64,000 nt of DNA. It comes from an uncultured Bacteroidota bacterium. Lineage in GTDB: Bacteria > Bacteroidota > Bacteroidia > Bacteroidales > CG2-30-32-10. The stretch is taken from assembly GCA_963831005.1 (NCBI GenBank), contig CAWHOW010000045.1:9878-73877 (forward strand), given 5' to 3'. The notes under the pieces were generated by a model, which was not told where the DNA came from, did no database searches, and worked only from the letters and a program-made list of their open reading frames with translations. Shown here piece after piece: positions 3,353 through 55,181 of this stretch (its first letter is position 1; every line of letters begins with the position of its first letter). A program made the translations under genes and the position numbers.

Positions 3353-3521
3353 TTTTTAGTTTTTATTTTTAATATTATAACTTGTTCTTTAACGAAGTTC
3401 TATGCTTTTATCCATTTAACTGTATTTGCTGAATACTTATGCAAAGTTAAGGATAAACAGGCAGGTGAACAAAATGATTATACCAATAATTAACAATAAT
3501 TTAGTAAATATTTAAGCAAAA

Positions 3522-3899
3522 CTGATGATTTGGTAGGCAATATTGAAGATAACTGAAACAACAATAATGATAATCTCTGCAAAAAGGATAACCCGACACT
3601 GATTGTTGATGATAACCACAGCTAATTTGATGATTACCGTAAAGTATTTGATGATAACCACCTGTAATTTGATAAATACCATACGGTAATTGATAAATAC
3701 TGTACGGTACTTAATGAATACTGTACGGTAATTGATAACAACCGTTCGGTACTTAATGAATACCGTTCGGTATTTGATGACAATAACTGCAAAAATGATA
3801 AATCGGCTTCAATTATTGATGACAACCGAAGCCGAATTGATAAATTACCACTGATTATTGATGACTATCGTTCGGTATTAAATAACAATAGCGCCATAC
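3522..3899. repeat. 21-bp-phased degenerate tandem array 1 (18 units, core TTGATGAtAAC)
   Basis: Units start at 3522, 3543 ... 3879 with exact 21-nt spacing and no indels. Examples: ttgatgataaccacagctaat, ttgatgattaccgtaaagtat, ttgataaatactgtacggtac. The core contains TGA TGA TAA, so all + frames are closed; the longest - ORF is 63 aa. Confidence 0.85.
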
Positions 3900-3920
3900 T
3901 TTAAAAATATGGCGCTATTG
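3886..3920. terminator. strong hairpin (13-bp stem), possible terminator
   Basis: caatagcgccata / tatggcgctattg around the loop ctttaaaaa, with modest T-rich sequence on both sides. It could terminate the minus-strand gene 4070..4741 or a plus-strand transcript of array 1. Confidence 0.45.
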
Positions 3921-3969
3921 TTTACGAATATATCTTAAAAAGAAATGAGTGTATTTAAACAGAAGCCTC

Positions 3970-4060
3970 CATTGCGAGCTTGAATCCGTCATTGCGAGGA
4001 GGAACGACGAAGCAATCTTATCAATGAATTAAAGATTGCTTCACTTCGTTCGCAATGACG
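3970..4060. repeat. REP-like palindrome, second copy of the cattgcgagg/gaagcaatc family
   Basis: cgtcattgcgaggaggaacgacgaagcaatc, a loop, then gattgcttcacttcgttcgcaatgacg. Shares about 30 nt almost exactly with 1764..1794. Confidence 0.8.
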
Positions 4061-4069
4061 ATAAAAAAT

Positions 4070-4741
4070 TTAGTTTACCCTTACATTAACACTTACTGTC
4101 CATGCAGTTCTGAGGCCATGGGTAAGCATCTGCCTGTTTTGAAAGTAATAAACAACTCCTGAAGTTAAGCCAGTCACGGTTTGTTTCTGTGTCCTGCTCG
4201 ATTCACATGGAATCCATGTTTTATTGTCCGTGCTCATTTGAAAATCATGAGGACCCGGGCCTTCGCCAACCAAATCAACAGTACCTGCAACAGTACCATT
4301 TTTAGCTGTACTCTTACGTTTACCTCCATTATTCTCATCTTTTGCTTTCATTCCCGCATCGTGGATTATTTCAAGTGCACTTGCCGGCGAAGCGTCAGCC
4401 AAAATCTGAACGTCGGCTTTCAATGCCCGAAGATTATCTTTAACATCATTCCATGAAGTGTTCCTGTCGGCAGTTGTCTTTGTCGGAGGCTTGGTTTTAG
4501 AAGCGGTCTGATTAGTAATAAGCGCTGCCAGGTTTGTTGCAAGCGTGGCAAGTTTAGCTGCCGAAGCCGAATAAACAGTGCTTGCCGACATTGAATTGTG
4601 AATGGTTCCGGCATACTCAATTAATGCCTGAACTTTTGTAGGCATATCAAGCACTACTATAACCCTTTTAATTACCACCTTAATTGGTTTCGAAATTGCG
4701 ATCAAAAAGATCACCCTGATTAATTTTGCTATTGTTTTCAT
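4070..4741 (-). CDS. hypothetical protein, N-terminal hydrophobic anchor and C-terminal FN3-like beta-sandwich
   Basis: 223-aa ORF. The C-terminus (MSTDNKTWIPCESS..QTVTGLTSGVVYYFQNR...WTVSVNV) looks FN3-like. An alternative ATG lies at 4645. The first about 33 codons are conserved with the small ORF at 39545. Confidence 0.6.
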   Translation of the reverse strand: MKTIAKLIRVIFLIAISKPIKVVIKRVIVVLDMPTKVQALIEYAGTIHNSMSASTVYSASAAKLATLATNLAALITNQTASKTKPPTKTTADRNTSWNDVKDNLRALKADVQILADASPASALEIIHDAGMKAKDENNGGKRKSTAKNGTVAGTVDLVGEGPGPHDFQMSTDNKTWIPCESSRTQKQTVTGLTSGVVYYFQNRQMLTHGLRTAWTVSVNVRVN

Positions 4742-13819: not shown

Positions 13820-13833
13820 ACCATTTACCCTAA

Positions 13834-15190: not shown

Positions 15191-15244
15191 CCCTAATATT
15201 ACTATCATTTAAAAGCATTTGTTATTTTTTGCAAAAAATAAAAT

Positions 15245-19110: not shown

Positions 19111-19211
19111 GTAAATTGAAACAAATAACAAAAGGATTTTTTCCTGAAAAACGAGTAAATCAACAAGATGCAACAAAAGAATCCCATACCAAAGCAAGAG
19201 TATTCCGTCGC

Positions 19212-19841
19212 CTCGTCTGACATCACGCTCAGCTTGTTTAGTAAATTGGCCGCCTCGTCTAGCGTAACGACCACTTCATTAAGTACGATGCCCACGTCAT
19301 ATAGCGAGACGACCAACACGTTTTGCAAGACGCCCACATCGTTTAGTACGGTGTCCATATCATTGAGCAAAATGCCCATCTTGTTAAGCACGACGCCGAA
19401 AACATTTTACATGATGCCCGCATCATTGAGTATAATGACCACTTCGTGGAGTACGATGCCCGACTTGTTCGGCTCAATGTCCGACTATTTGAGCATGATA
19501 CCTACGTTATTGGTTATAAAGCCCGCATCATTTAGTGTAACTATCAAGTCGTTAAGTACGATGCCCGCTGTGTTCAGTATGGCGACCACCTCGTTGAGTA
19601 TGACGCCGTTCGCGTTGGGCACGACACCCATCACGTTTAGCATGATGCCCATCACGTTTAGCACAATGCCGAACACGTTTAGCACGACGCCCATCACGCT
19701 GAGCACGACGCCCATCACGTTGAGTATGACGCTCATCACGTTGAGTATGACGCTCATCACGTTGAGCACGACGCTCATCATGTTTAGCACGACGCCCATC
19801 ACGTTGAGCATGATGCCGAACACGTTGGGCGCGATACTAAA
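19212..19841 (+). repeat. 21-bp-phased degenerate tandem array 2 (30 units, consensus cacgttgagcacgacgcccat), embedded in open ORF 19168..19926
   Basis: Units at 19212 + 21n with no indels. The right-hand units are near-identical (19716 and 19737 are identical) and the left-hand units are strongly diverged. One + frame is open for 252 codons from ATG 19168, with heptads such as TPITLST. Confidence 0.9.
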
Positions 19842-19911
19842 CGACCCCGCCGTCGGGAAAATAGTGCCGGGCAAGCGGAACATTAACCTGAATTATTATT
19901 CACGAGTTATA

Positions 19912-20056
19912 AAATCTAAATTCTAATTTCTAAACTCTAAATGAATTCCAATGAACCAAATGCTAAATTTAAAACAACTTCAATTAATACTGTTTGAAAC
20001 ATTGAAATTTTGAATTTTAATATTGTTTAGGATTTAGAGCTTCGTTCTTAGGATTT
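19912..20056. repeat. long AT-rich imperfect palindromic element (ctaaat...atttag family), copy 1
   Basis: Left arm aaatctaaattctaatttctaaactctaaat, right arm tttaggatttagagcttcgttcttaggattt. Related to the element at 31012..31130. Confidence 0.7.
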
Positions 20057-20097: not shown

Positions 20098-20865
20098 ATG
20101 GCAAAAAAAGTTTTAAGTAGAAAGCTGATATTAACAGCAGATTTCACGGGCTTGACCCTTGAAGAAAAATTAACCAAGCAAGCCAACATGGCAAAAGCAC
20201 AGACAAATAACCCCCTGTTGGTGCCGGGTTTAAATCCTACTGCAGCAGCAGTGGAGGCGGATATTACAGCCCTTACCGACCCCATTTCTGGGCTGATACA
20301 CGAACGCGGCGTGATAAGGGCACAGGAAGAATCGCTTACTTTGGCAATAAATAAAGCCGAAACGGCTATTAAGGATATTATTGTGAGCCAGTGGATGCCC
20401 CAGACACAGACAGCGCTTACCGGCACAACTAATGCCGAAGTTAATGCAGCATTACTGCTGTTTGGTATTAAAGGGCAAACTTCGGGGCATACCCCGGTTA
20501 CAGTGGCAAGTTTATCCAAAACGGCTTCGAGCGCCCCTGTTATAGTAAAAATTGATATTGACGTGCATGGGCAGCATATACTGCATGTGCATAATAATAT
20601 CACGGGCAAAATAGGGCACCCGAAAGATGTGCTGAGGGTAGATATTTATGCACAAACGGGTGGCACTGCCCCTGCCAACCTTGCTGCTTTGGTTACCAAT
20701 GGGGGAGGATGGCTTGGCACAACCAAGCGCGGTAAATACATTAACCAGTTTACGGTAACCGCCGCCAACCAGGGAAAGGTGGAATACTATATAGCGGTAT
20801 ATATAGAAAAAGCTACAAAGAAACCGGGTGCGCAAAGCGTGCCCGAAAGCGCTATGATTGAATAA
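20098..20865 (+). CDS. hypothetical protein (helical N-terminal half, beta-sandwich-like C-terminal half)
   Basis: 255-aa ORF with ATG start. No family recognised. The architecture loosely resembles 4070..4741. Confidence 0.6.
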   Translation: MAKKVLSRKLILTADFTGLTLEEKLTKQANMAKAQTNNPLLVPGLNPTAAAVEADITALTDPISGLIHERGVIRAQEESLTLAINKAETAIKDIIVSQWMPQTQTALTGTTNAEVNAALLLFGIKGQTSGHTPVTVASLSKTASSAPVIVKIDIDVHGQHILHVHNNITGKIGHPKDVLRVDIYAQTGGTAPANLAALVTNGGGWLGTTKRGKYINQFTVTAANQGKVEYYIAVYIEKATKKPGAQSVPESAMIE

Positions 20866-21705: not shown

Positions 21706-23019
21706 ATGAAAACAAAAATTCAATTACTGCTTGCAACTCTAACTATAAACCGTAAACTTGTCCGCTTACTTTTAATTCTTTGGCTGGCAATCGGGCTTGA
21801 AACAGGAAACTGTTTCGCCCAATTCACTTTTGTTCATATCTCTGACCTGCATGTTTCATGGGATGTTTCGTATGTAAATGGTTGCGATTTAAACGGAGTA
21901 ATGGCTCAATGTTATTTAAAAGTGTTGGCTAACCTTAATCCCAAGCCTGCATTTGTGATAGCGACCGGAGATATTTCAAATGAAGGCAACAACTCCCCTT
22001 ATGGAATGTATCCTACCCTTTCCCAGTTTTTATACCCTGGCTTAGTTCTGAACCCGGGCATAGGTGCATATTTTATTGATTCGGCACATACAATTCCTAT
22101 TTATTTTACCCCGGGAAATCATGATTATCGTACAACAAACTTACCCCCACTTTCAACTCCTGATCTTACTTTTTATTCCGAATACATAGCCCCAGATACC
22201 GATTATGCAGTAACAACCCATGACGCAGTCATATTGTTTATGCGTTCGGGTTACGATACTCTCCTTCCCTGGCTTAATAATTTAAACCCATTGAGTCCGG
22301 AAGGTTCAGGGTTGTCGAATGCTCAAATCAGTTGGATAAGAAGTGAGTTAAGCGCTAACAGTACAAGAAGAAAAATTATAGTAATGCATCATCCTCCCGT
22401 TAATGCCGTAGGTACAAACTCTGACGGAACTCCCTTTACCGGAACTATTCAGGACACGGCTGACGCCTCTATAACAAGAAACAGAACTGTTTTTCTGAAT
22501 ATCTGCGATTCAAACCATGTGGACGTTATATTGGCAGGGCATGAGCATCAAAATGTAGTTGCCAACAGAGCGGGAAACGTTATTGATGAAAACTGGTCGG
22601 GGGGCACAAGGTATGTCCAAACAGGCGCAGCCGAAAATGGTTCCTACCGTGTTATAACTGTTGATTCGTCATTTGTTACAGTTAGCCCACCTTCGCTATG
22701 TTGTACCACGATAACAGATTTTAAAGAGTTAAGCAATTCATCATTCACCAACGTTTATCCCAATCCAGCGACAAATACGTTAACAATAGAAAACCTCAAA
22801 GCGGCAGTCGGCAGTATGCAGTCGGCAGTCAACAATATAGAAATATACAATTCGCTTGGAGAAAAGATATATTCGTCATTAGGAGTTTTACCAATGACTA
22901 ATGCCCCAATGACTAATACACCAATAACCATTAACATAACAGATATTCCAAGTGGAGTATATATTGTGAAAGTGAGAACCGAAAAAGGAGTGGCGATAAA
23001 GAAGTTTATAAAAGAATAG
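21706..23019 (+). CDS. metallophosphoesterase with T9SS type-A C-terminal sorting domain
   Basis: Calcineurin-like motifs (HISDLH, GDISNEG, GNHDY, VMHHPP, GHEHQN). The C-terminus (VYPNPATNTLTIE...SGVYIVKVRTEKG) is a typical Por secretion tail. Confidence 0.8.
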   Translation: MKTKIQLLLATLTINRKLVRLLLILWLAIGLETGNCFAQFTFVHISDLHVSWDVSYVNGCDLNGVMAQCYLKVLANLNPKPAFVIATGDISNEGNNSPYGMYPTLSQFLYPGLVLNPGIGAYFIDSAHTIPIYFTPGNHDYRTTNLPPLSTPDLTFYSEYIAPDTDYAVTTHDAVILFMRSGYDTLLPWLNNLNPLSPEGSGLSNAQISWIRSELSANSTRRKIIVMHHPPVNAVGTNSDGTPFTGTIQDTADASITRNRTVFLNICDSNHVDVILAGHEHQNVVANRAGNVIDENWSGGTRYVQTGAAENGSYRVITVDSSFVTVSPPSLCCTTITDFKELSNSSFTNVYPNPATNTLTIENLKAAVGSMQSAVNNIEIYNSLGEKIYSSLGVLPMTNAPMTNTPITINITDIPSGVYIVKVRTEKGVAIKKFIKE

Positions 23020-23058
23020 AGAAAGTCGTAAAAAGTAATCAAATTGAAAGGATTCAAA

Positions 23059-23310
23059 ATGAGCAAAGAAAAAAAAGTAAAAGAAGAAAATACAAAATTT
23101 GCCGAAATAGGCAAGGTAGAAATATCTGACAAAAAAAGCATAGTGGTTTCGTCGGTTGAAAGGGATGGCGTATTTGCAGGAATAAACATAAATGGCTTTA
23201 TCTCTACCCCGCGATATACGGGGTATTCCAAGGGCGTGTTTGTTCCTGCCGATAAAGTTGCAGCCTTTGCTTCATTAATAAACCTAAAAACGGAAAAGCG
23301 AGTTCTTTAA
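23059..23310 (+). CDS. hypothetical small protein (possibly PC4/YdbC-like)
   Basis: 83 aa from ATG 23059. Lys-rich N-terminus, then the pattern KVEISDKKSIVVS...GININGF...YSKGVFVP. The assignment is weak. Confidence 0.4.
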   Translation: MSKEKKVKEENTKFAEIGKVEISDKKSIVVSSVERDGVFAGININGFISTPRYTGYSKGVFVPADKVAAFASLINLKTEKRVL

Positions 23311-27838: not shown

Positions 27839-28762
<924 letters not shown>

Positions 28763-28800
28763 GTTCATTAAGTTATAATAACAATTTAACAATTAAAGAT

Positions 28801-30564
28801 ATGAAAACAAAAATCTTAATTATCGTATTACTGGTAACCGTTTACCGTTTACTGATTACCGATTACTGTTTTGCTCAAAACAACGTAGGTATCAATACAT
28901 CGGGCTCAACGCCCAACAGTTCAGCCATACTCGATTTGAACACGGGCAATACTTTTACAAGCCCTAATGGTAAAGGATTACTGATACCGTGTATGAACAC
29001 AGCAAGTATGAATGCCATCGTTTCGCCTGTTAACGGTCTTATAATTTTTAATACCGATTGCGAAACAATAAATTATTACAACGGAACCACCTGGATTGCC
29101 ATTGGCAATGGAAGCGGCATATCAGCGCCAGGAGCTATCACAGGCAGCACATCACCGGCTTGCAATGCTACAGGCATTCCTTATTCCATTGCAGCGGTTA
29201 CAGGAGCAACCGGCTATAACTGGACAGTACCAACAGGTGCAACAGTAGCCACAGGACAGGGTACTACCGCCACCACGGTAAACTTCGGGGCTGTTTCGGG
29301 CAATGTATGCGTATCAGCAAGCAATGCCTGCGGAACAAGCGCACCTTCATGCGTTACAGTTACTCTTCCGGGACCTGCCCAACCCAGCGCTATAACAGGC
29401 ACAAGCCCTGTATGCCAGGGTGATAACGGGGATGCTTATTCAGTAACTAATGTAGGCGGGGTAACATATACATGGACATATTCTGGCACAGGTTATACAC
29501 AAGCTTCCGGCGGAACCACCAACTCTATTACTGCCAACTTTTCCGCCTCTGCCACTTCCGGCACACTTACCGTTACCCCAAGCAATGCCTGCGGCAGTGG
29601 TACACCACAAACCTTGGCTATTACGGTGAACGCCGTACCCGCAGCCCCCACAGCAGGAACTAATACACCCTCACAAACCCAGGTTGTATGGAATTGGAAC
29701 ACCTCCAGCGGAGCAACAGCCTATTACTATAATACAGTGAATAATTTTGGTACAGCCACCAGCAATGGGGCAAGTACTTCCTACACCCAAACAGGACTGA
29801 CCTGCAATACAGCTTATACCCTATATATATGGGCTTATAATAGTTGTGGAAATTCCACTGCCACTACATTAACACAAACCACTTCTGCTTGTTGTACACC
29901 AAGTGTTGTAACAATAAGCACGCTCACTCAAACAACCACATGTAATGGGACAAACACTATTGTAGCGTGGACTGGTTATGGTTCTACCACTTGGACTGTT
30001 CCCACCGGTGTAACCCTGGTTAATTACCTTGTTGTGGGCGGAGGTGGCGCTGCTGGAACCAGCCCGCCATGTTACTATGCTGGTGGTGGTGGTGGACAGG
30101 TTCTATCAGGAACATTAGCAGTATCTGGTAGTATAGCTTTAACAGTAGGGGCTGGAGGAACCGGAACGTCTTACGCAGGAAACCCGGGCGGGGTAAGTAG
30201 TTTCAGTTCAATATCTGCTTCTGGCGGACAAGGCGGACTATCTGGAGGTGCTACGGGAGGGACATGTGGCGATGGTGTGCATATCGGCGGTTCAGGAACA
30301 TGTAACCCAGGTGGTGGTGGTGGTGGTGGTGGTGCAAGTGCTAATGGCTCTAATGCACCCGGTGGTGGTATAGGTGGAGCAGGTGGGAATGGAGTGGCTT
30401 CGTCCATAACCGGGAGTTCGATTTATTACGGTGGTGGAGGTGAAGGTATTGGATCTACAGTAACAGGGAACGGGCCTGGTTTAGGGAGTATTGGTGGCGG
30501 CGGGTTTGCCGGTTCTCCCGGTTCAGGTGTAGGAAATTCTGGTACTGTAATAATATCGTATTAA
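28801..30564 (+). CDS. PKD-like / FN3 / glycine-rich-domain surface protein
   Basis: ATG 28801 gives a signal peptide. The N-terminal VGINTSGSTPNS..LLIP module is homologous to that of 27848..28762. Two PKD-like modules follow (ITG...C....Y.....G.T.Y.W), then an FN3-like segment and a GGGG-rich C-terminal domain (W.VP.GV..V.YLVVGGGGAAG). Confidence 0.75.
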   Translation: MKTKILIIVLLVTVYRLLITDYCFAQNNVGINTSGSTPNSSAILDLNTGNTFTSPNGKGLLIPCMNTASMNAIVSPVNGLIIFNTDCETINYYNGTTWIAIGNGSGISAPGAITGSTSPACNATGIPYSIAAVTGATGYNWTVPTGATVATGQGTTATTVNFGAVSGNVCVSASNACGTSAPSCVTVTLPGPAQPSAITGTSPVCQGDNGDAYSVTNVGGVTYTWTYSGTGYTQASGGTTNSITANFSASATSGTLTVTPSNACGSGTPQTLAITVNAVPAAPTAGTNTPSQTQVVWNWNTSSGATAYYYNTVNNFGTATSNGASTSYTQTGLTCNTAYTLYIWAYNSCGNSTATTLTQTTSACCTPSVVTISTLTQTTTCNGTNTIVAWTGYGSTTWTVPTGVTLVNYLVVGGGGAAGTSPPCYYAGGGGGQVLSGTLAVSGSIALTVGAGGTGTSYAGNPGGVSSFSSISASGGQGGLSGGATGGTCGDGVHIGGSGTCNPGGGGGGGGASANGSNAPGGGIGGAGGNGVASSITGSSIYYGGGGEGIGSTVTGNGPGLGSIGGGGFAGSPGSGVGNSGTVIISY

Positions 30565-30634
30565 TAAAAATGGGAGGAAAGCTGTGCCTACCGGCAAGGC
30601 AGGCTTGTTCGATATTCGATATTAAACAGAGATG

Positions 30635-30661
30635 GCTTCGCAAAATGCGAAGCTTTTTTTT
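30635..30661 (+). terminator. rho-independent terminator between convergent genes
   Basis: gcttcgc aaaat gcgaagc followed by T8. Confidence 0.75.
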
Positions 30662-30998
30662 ACGATAGTTCTTCTTTTATCTCCAGCAGGAAATCTTTTA
30701 TTTCTTTAAGGCTTTTTACTATTTCAATATTCTGGATAAGTTCTTCTTTGTTATCCTTAAGTTTGTTCTTAGCACCCTGTAGAGTAAAACCACGTTCTTT
30801 CACCAGGTGATAAATGATATGGAAATTATCCACATCTTCCTGTGTAAAAAGACGGTTGCCTTTTTTATTCTTTTGCGGTTTAATAATTTCAAATTCCTTT
30901 TCCCAAAAGCGAATCAGCGAAGTGTTCACCTGGAACATTTTAGCCACTTCGCCAATGGTGTAATAAATCCGTCCTATTTCTTTTTCCTTTAAAGGCAT
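30660..30998 (-). CDS. MerR-family transcriptional regulator
   Basis: YYTIGEVAKMFQVNTSLIRFWEKEF is a MerR-type HTH; the remainder looks like a coiled coil. Confidence 0.85.
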   Translation of the reverse strand: MPLKEKEIGRIYYTIGEVAKMFQVNTSLIRFWEKEFEIIKPQKNKKGNRLFTQEDVDNFHIIYHLVKERGFTLQGAKNKLKDNKEELIQNIEIVKSLKEIKDFLLEIKEELS

Positions 30999-31011: not shown

Positions 31012-31130
31012 CTAAACTCGAAACTCTAAACAATTTCAAATGTCAAAATTATCAATGTTCAAAACGGTTTGATTCATTTGAATTTTTGTCATTGTAAATT
31101 ATTTAGGATTTAGAAATTAGATATTAGAAT
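31012..31130. repeat. long AT-rich imperfect palindromic element, copy 2
   Basis: ctaaactcgaaactctaaacaatttcaaatgtcaaaatt ... aatttttgtcattgtaaattatttaggatttagaaattagatattag. Related to 19912..20056. Confidence 0.7.
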
Positions 31131-31140
31131 TTTCTTTGCA

Positions 31141-36148: not shown

Positions 36149-38764
36149 ATGAATGCTGCCGATATAAGGAGAACGTTCACAGGCTTCTTTGCCTCGAAAA
36201 ACCACGCAATTGTGCCTTCTGCACCTATGGTTATCAAGAATGACCCTACTTTGATGTTTACCAATGCCGGAATGAATCAGTTTAAGGATATATTCCTTGG
36301 TAACTCTCCTGCAAAACACCCAAGAGTAGCCAATTCACAAAAGTGCCTTCGCGTATCAGGAAAACATAACGACCTCGAAGAAGTTGGTCATGATACTTAC
36401 CACCATACCATGTTCGAAATGCTTGGCAACTGGTCGTTTGGGGATTATTTTAAGAAAGAGGCAATAGAATGGGCATGGGAACTGCTTACGGATGTGTATA
36501 AAATTGATAAGGACAGGATGTATGTTACCATATTTGAAGGTGATAAAACCGATGGTATTCCTGCTGACTCTGAAGCTAAAGGGTACTGGAAAAATCTGCT
36601 AGCCGAAGACCGCATCCTTAACGGTTCGAAGAAAGATAATTTCTGGGAAATGGGCGATACAGGTCCTTGTGGTCCCTGTTCGGAGATCCATGTTGACATA
36701 CGCGATGATAAAGAACGCAAAAAAGTTGACGGTAAAAGTCTCGTCAATAAAGGCGACCCACATGTAATTGAAATCTGGAATCTTGTTTTCATTCAATACA
36801 ATCGTCTTTCTGATGGAAAGCTGGTTCCTCTTCCAGCTAAACATGTTGACACAGGTATGGGATTTGAAAGACTTTGCATGGTTATACAGGGCAAGAAATC
36901 GAATTACGATACAGATGTTTTTCAACCCATTATTGCTGAAATAGCCAGACTATCGGGCAAAAAATATGGCGAAGATGTAAAAGCCGATATTGCTATGCGT
37001 GTTATTGCCGACCATCTGCGTGCTATTGCATTCGCCATTGCTGATGGACAGCTGCCTTCCAATAATAAAGCAGGCTATGTTATCCGCCGCATTTTAAGAA
37101 GAGCGGTTCGTTATGGTTATACTTTCCTTGGATTTAAAGAACCATTTATGCACGAACTTATGCAGGTTCTGGTAAGCCAGATGGGTGAGTTTTTCCCTGA
37201 ATTAAAGTCACAGCAGGAGTTGATAAGAAAAGTGATAGCCGAGGAAGAGCTGGCTTTCCTGCGCACACTTGCCACCGGCATACAGCGTTTTGAGAATTAT
37301 ATACTATCCAACCCCGGTAAAAATATTATTGAAGGAGCTTTTGCTTTTGAGCTTTTCGACACCTTCGGTTTTCCTTTCGACCTTACCCAGCTTATGACTA
37401 AAGAAAAAGGCTGGACTGATGATATAAATGGCTTTAATGAAAACATGGAGGAGCAAAAGAAACGTTCACGAAATGCCGCAACTGTTGACACCGAAGACTG
37501 GGTGGAGCTGAAAGCTGTTAAAAATACTGAATTCGTGGGTTATGACACACTGAGCTGCGATGCCACAATACTTAAATACAGGAAAGTTAAAGCAAAGGAT
37601 AAAGAATTCTTCCAGCTTGTTCTTGATAAAACACCCTTCTATGCTGAATCGGGCGGACAGGTGGGCGACCGTGGTTACATAGAGGCTAATGGCGAAAAAA
37701 TTTCAATTGAAGACACTAAAAAGGAAAACAACCTTACCATACATATCACCAAAAAACTGCCAAAGGATGTTAATGCCGTTTTACACGCTGTGGTTGATAG
37801 AAATAAAAGACTGCATACCGAAAACAATCATTCGGCAACACACCTGCTGCATTCTGCATTGAAGAAAGTTCTCGGAACCCATGTGGAGCAAAAAGGTTCG
37901 CTGGTTGATGACGAACATTTGCGTTTCGACTTTTCGCATTTTGCTAAAATGACAGGCGAAGAAATTGCAAAAGTGGAAGCGCTGGTAAATGAGAAGATCC
38001 TTGAGAATATCATCATTGAAGACCTGCGTAATATCCCTATTGCCGAGGCACAAAAGATGGGAGCCACAGCCCTGTTCGGCGAAAAGTACGGCGATCATGT
38101 GCGCGTGGTGGCATTCGACAGGAAATATTCCATAGAACTTTGCGGAGGTACACATGTGCATGCTACCGGGCAGATTGGGATATTTAAAATACTTTCAGAA
38201 AGCGCTGTTGCTGCAGGCATCCGAAGGATAGAAGCCATCACCGGACTGAAGGCAAAACAATTTTATAATATCCAGAGCGAAATTATATCTCAGTTATATG
38301 AGTTACTAAAGAACCCCAAGGATATTTTACAAAGCGTTACACAACTGCAGGAGCAGAACACTTCCCTGCAAAAACAAGTGGGTGAATTCCAGAAAGAAAA
38401 AGCCCTTGGATTAAAAGATGAATTGAAATCCAGACTGCAAAACAAAGGGGGAATAAATTTCCTTGCTGAGAAAATATTGCTTGATGCCTCAGGTGCAAAG
38501 GACCTTGCTTATGCGCTGAAAAATGACACCGAAAATCTTTTCCTTGTTTTTGCTTACGAAAGCGAAGGCAAACCCGGGCTTGCCGTGATGATATCGGAGA
38601 ACCTCGTTAAAGAAAAAAATCTTGATGCCGCTAAAATAGTTCGCGAACTTGCCAAAGAGATACAGGGCGGCGGTGGCGGACAGCCTTTCTTTGCAACAGC
38701 CGGAGGTAAGAATGCCGCCGGAATTGAGAAAGCGCTGGAAAAAGCAGTTGATTTTATTAGGTAG
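36149..38764 (+). CDS. alaS: alanine--tRNA ligase
   Basis: 871 aa, with [28 protein letters not shown], the editing-domain HSATHLLH...CGGTHV and a C-terminal DHHA1-like GGGGGQP. Confidence 0.97.
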
Positions 38765-38926
38765 AGCTTTTTATTTCTATTGGCATATGCCTGTCAGAGA
38801 ATGCCAGAAATAAGCTATATTATTAAGAAAAAAATCCACATCTATCCCATTTCTGAGGTGAATTTGTTCTTGTTGACAATCCAGTAAAGCTGCTCAAAGC
38901 CCGTACATCTATTTACCTCTAAAAGC

Positions 38927-39475
38927 GTTCACTCAGAAAAAGGGTACGTTCACCCAAAATTAGCATATGTTCACGAAGTTTAGTTGGTTTTCCTTGATTT
39001 CGCTGACGTTTTAATGTATTATTGTATCAAACAATCGTTCTTTAACATCCTGATGGTAGTACATTCCCCAAAGCAGGGAGCATTAATATCAGACGTACGT
39101 GTAGTAATTATATCCACGTGGGTAGTGTTTGTATCTACGTCTTCCTTTGCTGCTAGCACATCTTTCGTTACCAGAACTACGTTGTCAGTTACTGCAAAGA
39201 TAGCTTCATTAACAGGAGACAGGTCTTCAATAATGGAAGCTATGGCTTCAATAACTGCAGCTAAGGCTTCAGTAACTGCAAAGATGGCTTCAATAATGGC
39301 AGACAGGTCTTCCATAACTGATGCTACAACTTCAATAACTACAGCTATAATTTCAGTAACTGCGGCTATGACTTCAACAATTGCAGCTATGTCTTCAATC
39401 ACTGCCGCTGTACATACAACAACTGCCGCTATGGATAGCATAACTATTACGACCGCCAAAGATATTAATGTTGTG
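38927..39475 (+). repeat. 21-bp-phased degenerate tandem array 3 (about 26 units, consensus gcttcaataactgcagctaag)
   Basis: The best units lie at 39224..39412. Weak in-phase units run upstream as far as three GTTCAC motifs at 38927, 38948 and 38969 (spacing 21 and 21). The + ORF 38984..39502 (heptads ASITAAK, ASVTAKM) and a - ORF are both open. Confidence 0.85.
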
Positions 39476-39544
39476 ATTTACTGTAATATAACCATCGCTT
39501 AAGTAAAATTAATTAAAGTATTAACAATTAAAAAAACTAAAAAA

Positions 39545-39715
39545 ATGAAAGCAATTATGAAAATGAAGAAAGCCTGCGTAGCATGTGGGTTGGTGTTTGG
39601 TATAGTATTATTAACTATTGCCATAATACCAAAAGTAGTGATCAAAAGGGTCATAGCAGTACTGAATATGAAGAAGCTTAAGAAGGTAGGGGCTTTTGTT
39701 TACGATATCACTTAA
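39545..39715 (+). pseudogene. 56-aa ORF homologous to the N-terminal anchor of 4070..4741 (probable gene fragment or small membrane protein)
   Basis: IAIIPKVVIKRVIAVLNM compares with IAISKPIKVVIKRVIVVLDM in the 4070..4741 product. At DNA level gtagtgatcaaaagggtcatagcagtactgaatatg compares with gtggtaattaaaagggttatagtagtgcttgatatg. The ORF stops shortly afterwards. Confidence 0.5.
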
Positions 39716-39840
39716 CAAAGTTTTTAACTTTCACAATACTTCAGAGGTAAGATCGAAAAAAGTTATTTTTTTAGCAAAAGAGTATGATATCAACACAAAT
39801 ACTCTATATTATATCTAATTTATTGGTTTACAGTTTTTGT

Positions 39841-39848
39841 TAATTTTG
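39841..39848 (+). promoter_or_regulatory. candidate -7 box (TAnnTTTG)
   Basis: TAATTTTG lies 24 nt upstream of the ATG at 39872. Confidence 0.4.
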
Positions 39849-39871
39849 CGAACAAATTAAACTTCAATACA

Positions 39872-40822
39872 ATGAACAAAAGACTTATATTATTTTTTTC
39901 GATAATAATGATAAACTATTTTTCTTTCGGGCAAATAACAGATAAAGAGAAGGAGCTTCTTGCAAAAACTGCCGATACTCTTGATGGCTGGAAAACGGGC
40001 GGTACTTTTACATTTAATTTAAGCCAGCTTTCATTGACCAACTGGGCTGCAGGAGGGCAAAATTCTCTGGGAATTAATGCTCTGGTAAATGTCTTTGCCA
40101 ATTTAAAACATAAGAATTCGGAGTGGGACAATACGCTTGATATGGGTTATGGATTGATACACCAGGGCGGTAAATCCGAGACTTACCAGAAGAGCAACGA
40201 TAACTTCGAATTCAATTCCAAATACGGGCAGAAAGCTTCGAAAAGCTGGTTCTATGCCGCTTTGCTGAACTTTAAAACACAATTCGCACCCGGCTATAAT
40301 TACCCGAACGATAGTGTGAAGATATCCGATTTACTAGCTCCTGCTTACCTGATAGGTGCGTTAGGCATGGATTATAGACCAAATAATGTATTCGATTGTT
40401 TTATTGCGCCGGTTACGGGTAAATTGATAATTGTAAATAATACTACCCTTGCCAACACAGGCGATTTTGGTGTTACCAAGGCCGTTCTTAATGATTCAGG
40501 TAAAGTTATTACTCCCGGTAAGAAGACAAAATTTGAATTTGGCGGATACATTAGGACTTCTTTAACGAAAGACATTATGAAAAATGTTAATCTATATACA
40601 GAAGCAGACTTCTTCTCAAATTATTTACAGAACCCGCAAAACATTGTTGTCAACTGGCAAATGCTTATTTCAATGAAAGTGAATAAATTTATTGCAGCAA
40701 CTTTATCAGCGCAACTTATTTATGATGATAAAGCTAAAATAGTGATTGATTCGAAAGGTGATACAGGTCCCAGAACACAGTTTAAAGAATTGTTCGGAGT
40801 GGGATTTTCTTACAAGTTCTGA
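39872..40822 (+). CDS. DUF3078-like outer-membrane beta-barrel protein
   Basis: Signal peptide, W.TGG.F.FN.SQ.SL.NWAAGGQNS and a C-terminal aromatic residue (SYKF), as recalled for DUF3078. Confidence 0.65.
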   Translation: MNKRLILFFSIIMINYFSFGQITDKEKELLAKTADTLDGWKTGGTFTFNLSQLSLTNWAAGGQNSLGINALVNVFANLKHKNSEWDNTLDMGYGLIHQGGKSETYQKSNDNFEFNSKYGQKASKSWFYAALLNFKTQFAPGYNYPNDSVKISDLLAPAYLIGALGMDYRPNNVFDCFIAPVTGKLIIVNNTTLANTGDFGVTKAVLNDSGKVITPGKKTKFEFGGYIRTSLTKDIMKNVNLYTEADFFSNYLQNPQNIVVNWQMLISMKVNKFIAATLSAQLIYDDKAKIVIDSKGDTGPRTQFKELFGVGFSYKF

Positions 40823-40852
40823 TAATTATAAGCACTAATAAATTCATTGATC

Positions 40853-43102
40853 ATGACCAAATCAGCAAATATCATAGATAGGGTAAGCAATTTAAAAAGT
40901 CTTATTAAGCCCGAAGATAACAGACACATATGGCAATTTTCGCGTGTAGGTGGAGTTAACAGGGTGAACCTTGAAACAGGTATGGACCTTGTTTCGCTTG
41001 AACACCTTGACCAAAAACTATGGACTGCATTAAGCTGCCCTGTTCACGGAATGGAGATTGATTCAAAGACTCTTGAGTTAATTGATAAGGATAAGGACGA
41101 CAGAATAAGGGTACCCGATATACTTGAAGCAGTAAAATGGCTTACTTCGCTTGTTAAAAACCCTGACGATTTGGTTAAGGAAAACCAAAGCCTACCTCTT
41201 TCTGCCATTAACGACAGCGGTGAAGAAGGGAAGAAATTACTTACTTCTGCCCATCAGATATTGACAAATTTGGGAAGACCTGATGATGAAGAAATATCTG
41301 TGGAAGAAACTTCCGACAGGGATAAAATCTTTGCCAATACTAAATTAAACGGAGATGGCATTATAACAGAAGATTCGTCAGATGATGAAAATATAAAGAA
41401 ACTCATCAATGAAATTATTTCCTGCATGGGCTCGGCAACAGATCTCAATGGCAAACAGGGTATTTCAATTGACCATATCACTGACTTTTATCAGAACTGT
41501 GTAGATTATTCTAACTGGTATACAAAAGCAGAAGCCGATCTGAAAAAGATTTTGCCCTATGGCGATTCTACGGATGCTGCATATGCATCGTTCACTGCTG
41601 TTAAGTCTAAAATTGAAGATTATTTCCTGAGATGCCGTTTAGCTGATTTTGATGCGGATTCCGCAGGAATCTTAAATTCTCTCAATTCAAGATATGAAGG
41701 AATAATAGTTAAGGATCTAACTTCATGCATTGATGAAATTGCTGCTTTTCCGCTTACTAAGATCGAAGCCCAAAAGCCACTATCTCTTACCAAAGCCATT
41801 AATCCGGCATGGGAAAAAGCAATTGATGACTTCAAGGAATTAGTTGTTAAACCCGAATTTTTAGATAAGGCAAACCTTACAGAAGCTGATTTAAGTATTA
41901 TTATTGGCAGGTTTGTTGATTACTGCAAATGGCAAACTGAGAAGAGTGGTGTTGCTGTTGAAAAATTGGGATTGATGCGCATACGTGAATTATTGGCAGG
42001 CAATTCGAAAGAGATGCTTTGCTCATTGATAGAGCAGGACAAAGCGCTGGAGGATAACACAAATAATATTTTCCTGGTTGATAAATTAGTAAGGTATTAC
42101 CGCGACCTATATACTTTGCTAAAAAACTATGTTACATTCTATGATTTTTATAAGCCGGAATCAAAAGCGATATTTCAGGTAGGCAGCTTGTATATTGATC
42201 AGCGTTCCTGCGACCTTTGCATAAAAGTGAGTGATATGAGCAAACATAACTCACTTGCTGGTTCAAGTGGAATCTGCCTTATTTATTGCAACTGTTTTTC
42301 GAAGTTAAAGAATGAGAAAATGACCATTGTGGCTGCTCTGACCGATGGTAATATTGATAACCTTTCAGTGGGAAGAAATGCAATATTTTACGACAGGAAA
42401 GGCGACGACTGGGATGCTACTATTGTTAAAATTGTTGACAATCCGATAAGCATCAGGCAGGCATTCTGGTCGCCATACAGGAAGGTTTCCAAATTCATTT
42501 CTACGCAGATTGAAAAAGTTGCTTCGGCTAAAGAGAAGGAAGTGCATGCAACAACTACATCCCATATTGAAAAGACAAGCGATAAGGTAGATACCGGAAT
42601 AAAAGAATCTATGAAAGCAACTCCTGTGGAGGCAGCTCCAGCGCCACAGCAACCATTTGATATTGGAAAGTTTGTAGGGATATTTGCAGCTATCAGTCTT
42701 GCTCTTGGAGCTATTGGCTCCGTTGTAGCATCAATATTAACAGGCTTTTTCGGACTGGCATGGTGGAAAATGCCGCTTGCAGTGGTTGGCATTATCATTT
42801 GTATTTCAGGTCCGTCAATGATACTGGCATGGCTTAAATTGAGAAAAAGAAACCTTGCACCTTTATTAGATGCAAATGGATGGGCAATTAATGCACGTGC
42901 CACCATCAACATACCTTTTGGAAATACCTTGACTCATATTGCAGCCTTACCTGTTAATTCAAAACTAAACCTTGTTGATCCTTTTTCAAAAAAGAAAAGA
43001 CCGCTTTTCCCAATTTTAATAATTCTGATTATTGCACTGAGCATTGCCACATATCTGCTATGGCATTTCGGAATTTTAGATAAATGGGGGATTTTACGTT
43101 AA
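40853..43102 (+). CDS. hypothetical large protein with C-terminal transmembrane region
   Basis: About 750 aa. The soluble N-terminal part has an EF-hand-like DKDKDDRIRVPD, and 3-4 hydrophobic helices sit near the C-terminus. No family recognised. Confidence 0.6.
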   Translation: MTKSANIIDRVSNLKSLIKPEDNRHIWQFSRVGGVNRVNLETGMDLVSLEHLDQKLWTALSCPVHGMEIDSKTLELIDKDKDDRIRVPDILEAVKWLTSLVKNPDDLVKENQSLPLSAINDSGEEGKKLLTSAHQILTNLGRPDDEEISVEETSDRDKIFANTKLNGDGIITEDSSDDENIKKLINEIISCMGSATDLNGKQGISIDHITDFYQNCVDYSNWYTKAEADLKKILPYGDSTDAAYASFTAVKSKIEDYFLRCRLADFDADSAGILNSLNSRYEGIIVKDLTSCIDEIAAFPLTKIEAQKPLSLTKAINPAWEKAIDDFKELVVKPEFLDKANLTEADLSIIIGRFVDYCKWQTEKSGVAVEKLGLMRIRELLAGNSKEMLCSLIEQDKALEDNTNNIFLVDKLVRYYRDLYTLLKNYVTFYDFYKPESKAIFQVGSLYIDQRSCDLCIKVSDMSKHNSLAGSSGICLIYCNCFSKLKNEKMTIVAALTDGNIDNLSVGRNAIFYDRKGDDWDATIVKIVDNPISIRQAFWSPYRKVSKFISTQIEKVASAKEKEVHATTTSHIEKTSDKVDTGIKESMKATPVEAAPAPQQPFDIGKFVGIFAAISLALGAIGSVVASILTGFFGLAWWKMPLAVVGIIICISGPSMILAWLKLRKRNLAPLLDANGWAINARATINIPFGNTLTHIAALPVNSKLNLVDPFSKKKRPLFPILIILIIALSIATYLLWHFGILDKWGILR

Positions 43103-43411
43103 CTTTTATTTCAAGTGAATTTAGGTTATATTACAACAGCTGTTTCTTGGATGTTAGCTTTGTAAAATGAATTTGATTCAGATTTATTTAAAAAGCTAAA
43201 AGGGAAACATCTTTTTTCTTTGCAAGACATTTTAAAAAGAAAAAAGATTGGGTATAAGACATTCAAAAATGTATATCTGTCACTAAAGCCTAAGTGCTTC
43301 ATCCCTGATTTCAAGAGAAAGTATGAAAAAGAGAACTGATATTTTATAATGCATCCGTTGAAAACCCTTATTTTGAAATCTACAACAAGTTTCTGATGCG
43401 GTGGATGCAGC

Positions 43412-43456
43412 ATAAAGAAAAATCACACATTATGTGTGACACATTTTGTGTGATAT
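43412..43456 (-). terminator. probable rho-independent terminator of the xanthine-dehydrogenase operon
   Basis: Palindromes tcacacattatgtgtga and cacattttgtg. On the minus strand the hairpin is followed by tttttcttt, about 70 nt downstream of the stop at 43525. Confidence 0.5.
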
Positions 43457-43524
43457 TGTTTTGCTAAGTAAACTATGGGAAAGAACATTCTGAAAATTTA
43501 CTAGTGTAGTACACTGAAACTTAC

Positions 43525-43980
43525 TTATTCAACAACTGCTTTCACCGCATTCATTATAGGAATATACCCTGTGCAGCGGCAAAGATTTCCTTCAAGGGCT
43601 TCTTTAATTTCAGCTTCAGTTGGGTTGGGTCTCGCATCGAGCAAAGCTTTAGCACTCATCAGCATACCGGGTGTACAGAATCCACATTGTACAGCGCCAA
43701 ACTTCAAGAACGATTCCTGCAGTTTGGAAAGGACATCATTCTTTTCAATATTTTCAATGGTTTCAATAACGGCATCCTGTAACTGTCCTGCAAGCACCAG
43801 GCAGGAGCATATTGCTTCGCCATTCATAATTACTGTACATGCGCCGCATTCGCCAACACCACAGCCTTCCTTGGTTCCTGTTAATCCTAGTGTATCTCTT
43901 AAAACATCAAGCAGGCGGAGGGAATCATCAACATCAAGCTGGTGGATCTTATTATTTACAGTAATTTTTATTTTTGACAT
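43525..43980 (-). CDS. (2Fe-2S)-binding small subunit of a xanthine dehydrogenase-family enzyme
   Basis: GCGVGECGACTV (plant-type cluster) and CGFCTPG...CRCTGY (second cluster) motifs. Confidence 0.92.
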   Translation of the reverse strand: MSKIKITVNNKIHQLDVDDSLRLLDVLRDTLGLTGTKEGCGVGECGACTVIMNGEAICSCLVLAGQLQDAVIETIENIEKNDVLSKLQESFLKFGAVQCGFCTPGMLMSAKALLDARPNPTEAEIKEALEGNLCRCTGYIPIMNAVKAVVE

Positions 43981-54094: not shown

Positions 54095-54252
54095 GATATT
54101 ATTTACACAAGGGAGTATATAATATAGAAGGCTGCCAGGCTGCCAGACAAGGGTTTTTTAACATTTCACGGCGAGGCCGAACAGAAGAACAAGTTTCCCT
54201 CTATGTTTTGGCCTCCTCTTATTGGAATAAATCTTTTGCACCGGGGTTCATT

Positions 54253-54924
54253 GAAGTTTCTTTGAACAGTTCAGCAGTTGCTGGGAAGAGCTACGCATGT
54301 GCGTGGAAGAGTTCAGCAGTTTCTGCGAAGAGTTTAGCAATTGCCGCGGATGTCCACGCATGTGCCGGGAACAGTTTGGCAGTTGCCGCGAAGAGTTTAG
54401 CAGTCTCCGCGAAGGTCGTGGCAGTTGCCGCGAAGATCGTGGCGGTTGCCGCGAACAGTTTGGCGGTTGCCGCGAAGAGTTTGGCTGTTGCCGCGAAGAG
54501 TTTGGCAATTGCAGCGAACAGTTTGGCGGTTGCCGCGAAGAGTTTGGCAGTTGCCGCGAAGATCGTGGCGGTTGCCGCGAACAGTTTAGCATGTGTGTGG
54601 AACAGTTCAGCAGTTGCTGGGAAGAGCTACGCATGTGCGTGGAAGAGTTCAGCAGTTTCTGCGAAGAGTTTAGCAATTGCCGCGGATGTCCACGCATGTG
54701 CGTGGAACAGTTTGGCAGTTGCCGCGAAGAGTTATCCCTGTGCGTGGAACAGTTTAGCAATTGCTGCGAAGAGTTATCCCTATGCGTGGAAGAGCTACGC
54801 ATGTGCGTGCAAGAGTTATCCCTGTGCGTGGAAGAGTTTGGCCGTTGCCGCGAAGAGCCACGCATGTGCGTGGAAGAGTTCCCCCTGTGCGTGGAACAGT
54901 TTGGCAATTGCCACGAGGAGTATT
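54253..54924 (+). repeat. 21-bp-phased degenerate tandem array 4 (32 units; subtypes gcagttgccgcgaagagtttg and gcatgtgcgtggaagagttca)
   Basis: Units at 54253 + 21n with no indels. The 102-nt block 54264..54365 is repeated exactly at 54600..54701, an offset of 336 bp or 16 units. Two + frames and one - frame stay open for more than 215 codons. Confidence 0.9.
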
Positions 54925-55181
54925 GCAGAGGACAAATTTTCTATACTTATATATTAAACTTTGCTTGGTTTTTCCTCAAAATTAGTTGCTTTGTCCTCAA
55001 AATTAATACCCGAAATGGATAAATAAACAGGCTTTCCTGATAAAGGGTATGCCAGTAACAATGCGGAAGGTGAAAAATGGAAAACCGGATATGCACGAAT
55101 GAATAGGAAGCAGGAGTCAGAAGGCAACGTTCAGTCAACAACGAAAATAAAATTGGAAACTGCGGACTGAAGACTGAAAAA

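Follow-up and report, generated by a model that had tools for sequence, protein, structure and literature searches.

Repeat structure downstream of alaS

We analysed a 64,000-nt stretch of chromosomal DNA (contig CAWHOW010000045.1, hereafter the window) from an uncultured organism of the Bacteroidales (Bacteroidota), focusing on a block of 21-bp tandem repeats that lies after alaS. This block, named A3, is one of four long arrays in the window, the others being A1, A2 and A4 (Table 1). The window has a G+C content of 37.5%, and Pfam scans found cargo proteins of the type IX secretion system (T9SS), PorP/SprF, a TonB receptor and housekeeping genes in it; no tRNAs and no Rfam families were found in the window. 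Among the matches listed for genome representatives, the closest AlaS was 69% identical.

Table 1 Features of the A3 locus and the sibling arrays, in window coordinates.
Feature	Coordinates	Strand	Description
A1	3423..3975		Unit TTGATGAATACCGTACGGTAT; 21-nt period, unrelated unit; stops in all six frames
A2	19151..19899		Unit CGTTGAGCACGACGCCCATCA; VMGVVLN on minus, TPITLST on plus; linked to a 255-aa gene
alaS	36149..38764	+	From the list of open reading frames (ORFs)
Species-specific 4.8-kb segment	38747..43535		Flanked by alaS and a 2Fe-2S gene, whose stop codons converge
A3, lag-21 block	38918..39507		Lag-21 self-identity above 0.42
Separate three-unit sub-array	38926..38988		CGTTCACTCAGAAAAAGGGTA type; carries the GTTCAC motifs; inside the hypervariable block
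Weak terminator-like hairpin	38935..38955	-	GGGTGAACGTACCC and a T5 run; downstream of the minus-ORF stop; overlaps the second GTTCAC; 5-pair stem
Plus ORF	38984..39502	+	172 aa; ASITAAK heptads; starts with TTG; third codon positions coincide with those of the minus ORF
Aperiodic spacer, 63 nt	38989..39051		Lag-21 identity 0.31-0.32; no register signal (p=0.54)
Candidate gene (minus ORF)	39019..39441	-	140 aa from ATG at 39441; 146 aa from TTG at 39459
Main A3 array	39052..39433		~12 well-kept units at 39185-39433, where an 84-nt higher-order repeat is also seen, and ~6 decayed units (39052-39184), in one register
Degenerate units (n=3)	39434..39492		Core register (p=0.0005); nearly invariant between strains, unlike the core
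TATCTTTG	39457..39464	-	Fits the Bacteroidetes -7 motif TAnnTTTG; the minus-ORF ATG lies 16 nt downstream
56-aa ORF	39545..39715	+	Truncated paralog of the 223-aa family (window 4070..4741, minus strand); diverges from the minus ORF
A4	54196..55079		Unit GAAGAGTTTAGCAGTTGCCGC and variants; between a TonB-dependent receptor gene and ribE

Self-identity at a lag of 21 nt, computed in 105-nt windows, stayed above 0.42 without a break across A3, against a background of ~0.3, and the limits of this block nearly equal those given by an earlier inspection of the letters and ORFs of this DNA (the sequence-only reading). The periodicity spectrum which that reading had proposed was specific for the period, since 2541 positions across the window exceeded 0.42 at lag 21, compared with 149 at lag 20 and 9 at lag 22. 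Tandem Repeats Finder (TRF) returned 21-, 42- and 84-nt arrays at 39185-39433 and reproduced the core-unit consensus of the sequence-only reading with its GC of 9/21. The units stand head-to-tail without spacers, and no 7-nt or 14-nt periodicity was found inside the 21-nt unit. The core had a lag-21 identity of 0.68; the value was 0.45-0.5 over 39052-39184, fell to that of the spacer (Table 1) and was 0.40-0.49 over 38905-38989.

Register was assessed with a position-weight matrix (PWM) built from the core units and scored at all 21 circular offsets. The core register was recovered over 39136-39198 (p<0.0005), 39052-39135 (p=0.001) and 39430-39492, supporting the earlier claim that the array decays upstream while staying in register. 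No signal was obtained for the spacer, which contains the stop codon of the minus ORF (39019-39021) and possible starts of the plus ORF, and the units at 38926-38988 had no in-register likeness to the core (p=0.13), their best offset being 4 nt, at which GTTCAC meets the look-alike CTTCAA of the core. The three degenerate units at the other end hold the start of the minus ORF and its upstream sequence, and on the plus strand form the C-terminus of the plus ORF. A3 is thus composed of ~21 in-register units (39052-39492), a 63-nt aperiodic spacer and a distinct three-unit sub-array (38926-38988), in place of the ~26 continuous units first described.

The exact 21-nt spacing claimed for the three GTTCAC motifs (38927, 38948 and 38969) held, but their phase continuity with the core did not: an aperiodic gap lies between the two, the PWM gave no support, and the agreement of the coordinates is arithmetic only. 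The triple is non-random nonetheless, and no other lag-21 hexamer triple occurs outside the four arrays of the window.

Strain divergence and species specificity of A3

Exact look-up of the 56-aa ORF led to three public contigs that cover the array (L203, L204 and L205). L203 and L204 are 99-100% identical and represent one strain, and L205 is a sister strain; L214 and L217 lack coverage of A3 and give no extra alleles, L217 breaking off at the array edge, precisely at window position 38935. The window and the sister strain aligned without gaps across 800 nt, A3 included, with 105 differences of which nearly all lay within 38925-39425; 3 were found in the 160 nt upstream and 1 in 39430-39499. 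Flanking bins mostly held 0-1 differences per 35 nt, with up to 3 next to the 56-aa ORF, and the GTTCAC sub-array held 10-18, compared with 0-1 just upstream of it. The main array differed at 15.5% of sites between flanks that are ~99% identical, and A3 is ~10 times more divergent between the strains than its flanks.

Of the 63 variant bases in the main array, 55 already occurred at the equivalent phase of two or more other units, where 37 would be expected. The substitutions comprised 47 transitions and 51 transversions, and all 12 types occurred. Because the variant bases pre-exist in other units and transitions and transversions are nearly equal in number, we attribute these differences to conversion or recombination between units and not to point mutation. 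A3 would grow and homogenise as units are duplicated, four at a time in the 84-nt higher-order repeat, and as gene conversion acts between them. A3 is a genuine, hypervariable, species-specific 21-bp minisatellite.

The 4.8-kb segment around A3 contains the array, the 56-aa ORF, a DUF3078 gene and the gene of a 749-aa membrane protein. In contigs of sister species, L207 (88-91% DNA identity to the window) and L206 (80-84%), positions 38747-43535 are missing and alaS abuts a 2Fe-2S (Fer2) gene or a DUF6973 gene; A3 is therefore part of a species-specific insertion absent from sister species. Among the matches listed, none of the 80 best AlaS-matched Bacteroidota loci (≤69% identical) carried a 21-bp array after alaS. 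The sequence-only reading had named synteny downstream of alaS as a check on the locus, and its absence from all related genomes with no trace of selection as an outcome that would speak against it. This was borne out in part: the locus is absent from related species and from the 80 more distant Bacteroidota, but within the species it is present and evolves fast.

Three other kinds of element were considered and rejected. A CRISPR array was ruled out by the lack of spacers between units, by the absence of cas domains from the Pfam scans of the window and by the lack of an Rfam hit. A structured non-coding RNA was rejected because A3 gave no Rfam hit at the gathering threshold and folding z-scores of -1.28 on the plus and -1.16 on the minus strand. 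Mutagenesis of the diversity-generating retroelement (DGR) type was rejected because all 12 substitution types are present, so that the changes are not adenine-specific, and because no reverse transcriptase was found in the window.

A candidate gene on the minus strand

Heptad-type ORFs occupy both strands of A3, as the sequence-only reading had described and the ORF list confirmed. We tentatively favour the reading, to which we give nearly an even chance, that A3 is the body of a small, orphan, young and fast-evolving gene on the minus strand whose 140-155-aa product is a long heptad helix. Such a gene would run from 39441 to 39019, converging on alaS and pointing away from the 56-aa ORF. The predicted product, exemplified by the peptide AAVIEAIASIIEDLSPVNEAIFAVTDNVVLVTK, has ~13 heptads of the form [A/S][A/S]V[I/T]E[A/D/V][I/V/L] (AAVIEAI type) followed by a non-repeat tail. 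It would fold as a single ~100-residue alpha-helix with aliphatic residues at positions a, d and e and one stripe of Glu at f, ending in a short disordered tail, and would be a hydrophobic, acidic helix of the coiled-coil or helical-bundle type. A single-sequence AlphaFold2 (AF2) model showed residues 3-105 as one unbroken helix (pLDDT 86-96), followed by a disordered tail. We infer that the gene is expressed, that its helix oligomerises and that it has some cellular role.

The minus frame is open on four contigs (the window, L203, L204 and L205), which represent two distinct alleles, and was the choice of the gene callers on all three public contigs; 26% of alleles from a neutral simulation also kept it open. 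In the sister strain the ORF reaches 155 aa, because its stop codon TAA is TTA there. The 21-nt period is a multiple of three, the ~21 units hold one register, and no frameshifting indels separate the window from the sister strain. Over the 55 codons of the decayed part the minus frame is still open, and four other frames carry 2-7 stops. The heptads are strongly patterned, with I/V/L at position 7 in 13 of 13, V/I at position 3 in 12 of 13 and E at position 5 in 11 of 13. Position-7 codons (ATA, ATC, GTA, CTG and TTA) keep an invariant T as second base and vary at the first and third.

Codon usage gave a score of 0.22 for the minus frame (0.47 in the core) and 0.14 for the plus frame, compared with 0.27±0.07 for real genes and -0.13±0.12 for antisense frames with shared wobble positions. 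About 28% of the residues of the minus ORF change between near-identical strains. The replacements in the minus frame had a mean BLOSUM62 score of +0.32, against -0.52±0.27 in simulation (p ~0.001).

The plus ORF is probably a by-product of the minus ORF. In a layout with shared third positions an antisense stop requires a Tyr, His or Gln codon on the sense strand, and the plus ORF is open mainly because the sense strand has none of these. Both frames were open in the window as had been claimed (plus 38984..39502 and minus 39019..39459), but the coding reading of the plus ORF failed on an in-frame TGA in the array core of the sister strain, the same change being a conservative E->Q replacement in the minus frame. 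The variation described earlier as synonymous is not concentrated at wobble positions, and since the two ORFs share codon third positions it cannot separate the strands.

Sibling arrays and enrichment of the 21-bp period

The sequence-only reading had treated A3 as one of a family of four arrays. The four share their period, but not their sequence: every pairwise comparison of consensus units among the window's arrays was at chance level. As no flanking motif is common to the four, an origin as copies of a single mobile element was rejected. Arrays with a period of 21 (or 42 or 84) nt numbered 12.5 per 100 kb in the window, 7.7 in genus relatives and 1.3 in controls (760 kb of other Bacteroidota loci), an enrichment of ~10 times in the window; periods of 18 and 24 nt were not enriched. 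As a class, the arrays behave like DNA satellites that have the 21-bp phase as their one shared preserved property, and A3 is the most gene-like of them. Whether coding or a minisatellite of the variable-number tandem repeat (VNTR) type, the A3 locus itself is of a kind already known; the period shared by unrelated arrays, enriched in this lineage, is the most interesting lead.

A1, whose unit TTGATGAATACCGTACGGTAT contains the 12-bp palindrome TACCGTACGGTA, is 126 nt or 6 units longer in L201 (10940-11263), a strain 98-99% identical to that of the window. It is also kept downstream of a homolog of the 223-aa gene in another species (L202, 9326-9607), where a different frame is open, and gene calls for A1 disagree between L201 and L202. 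Its consensus is the same at 20 of 21 positions in L202 and the window, though the adjacent gene is just 81% identical, which suggests constraint on the unit sequence itself. Between A1 and the 223-aa gene lies a palindromic REP-like element (3950-4065; cattgcgag...gaagcaatc / gattgcttc...cgcaatgac), and a clean hairpin terminator is found at 3889-3920 (atagcgccata...tatggcgctat).

A2 and its 255-aa gene stay together in a different genomic context in the relative L208, where both the minus frame (263 aa) and the plus frame (200 aa) of the array are open. Within the species, the A2 core took 7 of the ~15 substitutions in 5.6 kb, counted outside a hotspot at 22.8-23.2 kb. An exhaustive search with the plus ORF of A2 matched only eukaryotic low-complexity heptads. 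The 255-aa gene (20098-20865; L208 4001-4768) belongs to no Pfam family, and upstream of it RVT_1, AhpC and PTL_trimer genes in L208 replace TPR and HTH genes.

The syntenic counterpart of A4 in a sister species (L210 4769-5154; also L211-L213) is a 21-bp array with another unit, TCTGTAGAAAATGCCGCAAAA (SVENAAK type), and no DNA could be aligned over the whole intergenic spacer; unit and spacer have been replaced beyond recognition between species at one syntenic site. At the edge of A4 (54965-55005) stands a 21-bp duplication, TTGCTTTGTCCTCAAAATTAG twice, upstream of a minus-strand ORF of A4, and this duplication carries two -7 promoter motifs TAATTTTG on the minus strand. G+C is 50-55% in A2 (19592-19885) and A4 (54264-54914), against 37.5% for the genome; GC-biased gene conversion in recombination-prone repeats, or a foreign origin, could be the cause.

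Weighing the alternatives

Many observations weigh against a gene on the minus strand of A3. Variation between units had no 3-nt periodicity in A3 or the other arrays (column entropy, p=0.77-0.88) and strain differences fell near-evenly on the codon positions (20/19/26), so that no classical signature of purifying selection is seen. Amino-acid changes numbered 38 against 42.7±3.2 simulated, barely below neutral; only the type of replacement looks conservative, and no concentration at third positions (dN<dS) was found. Hypervariability tracks the repeat and not the ORF, running past the minus stop into the GTTCAC units, and degenerate in-register units reach ~50 nt upstream of the minus ATG. 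The minus stop codon is not conserved between two 97%-identical strains, the flanking genes from 36149 to 43102 are all on the plus strand, and the truly independent second alleles amount to one, that of L205. AF2 gives a helix for nearly any idealised heptad. The motif TAnnTTTG, matched by TATCTTTG, is the Bacteroidetes -7 promoter consensus, and the match is weak evidence because the motif is not enriched in the window (90 found, 92 expected). No homologs of either A3 ORF were found in a protein collection that lacks even the ORFs called on the public contigs; as exact look-up retrieved no array ORF from it, these negatives are uninformative. Pfam and NCBIfam scans of all array ORFs gave no match, and a metagenome pattern scan for the A3 unit returned only unrelated 21-bp arrays from numerous organisms, none of them homologous to the window by blastn. 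A test of covariation within codons was not used, since it is confounded by unit subfamilies and closed frames score high too.

Most of these points are shared by a reading that we consider a real possibility, though clearly short of an even chance, in which A3 is a non-coding 21-bp minisatellite, selfish or neutral or constrained only in its phase of 21 bp (two helical turns), and both ORFs are incidental to a stop-free unit. The missing wobble periodicity, the near-uniform spread over codon positions and a hypervariability that includes the ORF-free GTTCAC sub-array are all expected of it. So is the behaviour of the siblings: A1 is polymorphic in copy number, with different frames open in different species, and because it persists and expands with stops in six frames, 21-bp arrays can live here without coding; A4 has a different unit and no alignable spacer in its syntenic counterpart; gene callers choose differing frames and strands for one array in different genomes. 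A1, A2 and A4 have codon usage unlike that of genes in every frame, which for A2 and A4 also counts against coding, and the arrays do not agree with one another in heptad chemistry. Harder to reconcile with a non-coding repeat is the single period of all large arrays, a multiple of three, with 20 and 22 absent and 18 and 24 not enriched. The decayed parts also stay open, over 55 codons in the minus frame of A3, 252 in the plus frame of A2 and 263 in the minus frame of A2 in L208, and the decayed part of A2 has only one 6-nt indel at 39% divergence. In A3, finally, the minus-frame replacements are conservative, and the invariant second-position T beside free first and third bases is the pattern expected from selection for an aliphatic residue.

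That the plus ORF is the gene, Ser/Thr/Ala-rich, co-directional with alaS and forming a two-gene unit with the downstream Fn3-family ORF, appears unlikely to us. It would agree with the strand of all flanking genes, and the ORF spans more of the periodic region than the minus ORF, with a stop at 39502 that coincides with the end of the in-register units. The plus ORF of A2 offers an analogy: its ATG start lies exactly where the homology of two genomes has its boundary, its N-terminal sequence MQQKNxIPKQEY is conserved, and in L208 a gap of 18 nt separates its end from the 255-aa gene. The codon-usage score of the plus frame in A3 is above the typical antisense range. Besides the TGA in the sister strain, however, one heptad position varies radically (M/K/R/T/I) and a third-position T is invariant beside variable first and second bases, replacement conservativeness is not significant (p=0.09), as a start only a TTG or an internal ATG is available, in a region of strong divergence between strains, and gene callers never picked this ORF for A3. 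A very improbable reading makes the GTTCAC units a functional DNA site of their own and not a remnant of the array, either a 21-bp-spaced operator (LytTR-like) or a terminator for convergent genes. LytTR-type regulators bind 9-bp direct repeats separated by 12 bp. The GTTCAC spacing fits this arrangement, one of the three copies, TACGTTCAC, matching 8 of 9 positions of the LytTR consensus, a lead and not a test; the exact hexamer triple is unique outside the arrays, and a minus-strand hairpin with a T-run overlaps copy 2. Yet that stem has just 5 pairs and by our own reading appears weaker in the sister strain, where the GTTCAC copies have become GTTCCC, GCTCAC and GTTCCC with units 1 and 2 homogenised as in a satellite, and no LytTR gene is among the annotated ORFs of the window. 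Because the hypervariable block coincides with all the periodic DNA, sub-array included, the GTTCAC units belong to the same evolving entity as the main array.

A broader reading, which we hold to be rather unlikely, is that the genus has a dedicated process or selective pressure that makes and keeps satellites of exactly 21 bp at many intergenic sites, whatever the unit. It is suggested by the fact that syntenic arrays differ in unit between sister species and that arrays persist without an open frame, while all keep their phase. The arrays could act at the DNA level, for example as phased, curved or protein-coated tracts with a part in chromosome organisation or in the insulation of convergent genes. 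Another possibility is a standing nursery in which coiled-coil ORFs such as the minus ORF of A3 arise de novo. The common period of four unrelated arrays within 64 kb therefore poses a testable question, whether heptad coding or the DNA helical repeat is the enforcer. If the minus ORF of A3 is real, it would encode a young, orphan, very hydrophobic coiled-coil protein and would show, as a clean natural case, how minisatellite dynamics can build and diversify a gene. In practice, 21-bp arrays break assemblies, one public contig ending at the edge of the array, and yield inconsistent gene calls.

Comparison with known repeat systems

Plasmid iterons and centromere-like arrays (17-22-bp repeats in phase with the DNA helix) resemble A3 in a unit of about two helical turns and in their direct, head-to-tail order; unlike them, A3 has 20 or more units (3-12 in iterons), is hypervariable and lies in a chromosomal housekeeping context. 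An iteron or centromere-like array was rejected, as no Rep, Par or HTH domain occurs in the neighbours (alaS, the 56-aa Fn3-family fragment, DUF3078 and the 749-aa membrane protein), and conserved binding sites of the iteron type were rejected because the units differ by 15.5% between strains with ~99%-identical flanks.

Cyanobacterial short tandemly repeated repetitive (STRR) sequences are intergenic heptamer repeats. Beggiatoaceae carry intergenic direct-repeat arrays of the heptanucleotide TAACTGA (PMC4679880). Both resemble the arrays of the window in a lineage-specific intergenic spread of short periods tied to 7; unlike them, A3 has a 21-nt unit lacking an internal 7- or 14-nt period, and units here vary by locus.

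Closest to the candidate minus-strand gene are coding heptad VNTRs of fast-evolving proteins, such as the repeat blocks of streptococcal M proteins and Plasmodium vivax MSP3, which carries alanine-rich AXXAXXX heptads (PMC7335089). Like A3, these have a period that is a multiple of 7 codons, a hydrophobic pattern at a and d with a predicted long helix, and strong strain polymorphism by unit duplication and recombination with the heptad chemistry retained. Unlike them, the minus ORF of A3, a predicted ORF only, lacks a signal peptide, an anchor, a non-repeat domain and detectable homologs, is extremely hydrophobic (Ala/Val/Ile with one Glu per heptad) and has no wobble-biased variation, and its host is an environmental member of the Bacteroidales and not a pathogen under immune selection.

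A survey of prokaryotic satellites read repeat lengths divisible by three as an indication of amino-acid repeats, described unusual satellite richness in a minority of species, and reported transposed non-coding satellite families, whose members share sequence, only from Leptospira interrogans and Methanocella conradii (PMC6749651). The window is similar in having tandem arrays scattered through the chromosome. It differs in that its long arrays share a 21-nt period with unrelated units in otherwise intergenic gaps, that one of them (A1) has no open frame and that period-21 density is 12.5 against 1.3 per 100 kb; unlike the transposed families, the arrays share no sequence. Our literature search returned nothing specific on 21-bp arrays in Bacteroidetes.

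The 56-aa ORF and further observations

The sequence-only reading had placed an ORF homologous to the N-terminus of the gene at 4070..4741 70 nt after the array. The homology was confirmed, but the distance was not, as the ORF starts 43 nt after the stop codon of the plus ORF. The alignment of the 56-aa ORF, which public data also list as a gene, covers residues 1-55 of a 223-aa family (13 members) with the N-terminal motif MK..(hydrophobic)..KVVIKRVIAVL..KVxAFIEYAG. Over the stretch KVVIKRVIAVLNM, the 56-aa ORF and the 223-aa gene differ by 8 synonymous and 2 non-synonymous codons, as read from the sequences. In the predicted structure of the family (pLDDT 80.6), a helical bundle follows the hydrophobic N-terminus and an Fn3 domain forms the C-terminus; a fold search gave generic Fn3 matches only. 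Because the helical bundle and the Fn3 domain are missing from it, the 56-aa ORF is a truncated paralog and not a full member. A phage origin of the family was rejected, as no viral relatives were found.

Heptanucleotide microsatellites of 4-10 copies are frequent in the intergenic DNA of this lineage, ~1.6-2.2 times the level of control loci (11960-11991, 22802-22830, 28837-28871 and 31101-31132; L208 2146-2212; L210 5250-5300). Several of them adjoin 21-bp arrays, for example TAAATTC x4.7 at 19910-19942. Weak lag-21 patches occur at 28740-28906 and 30612-30793, intergenic and beside collagen/PKD genes; 27848-30564 holds a gene with collagen-triple-helix repeats and then a gene with PKD and glycine-rich domains, in a CHU_C/PorP T9SS cluster. 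Divergence between conspecific strains has a second local hotspot at 22800-23199, where 400 nt contain 36 substitutions plus 21 gap columns (~1 per kb elsewhere); it corresponds to the 3' end of a Metallophos/Por_Secre_tail gene with short 7- and 15-nt repeats. Two insertion sequences with DDE transposases (8564-9529 and 13833-15191) are present in the strain of the window and absent from the conspecific L201.

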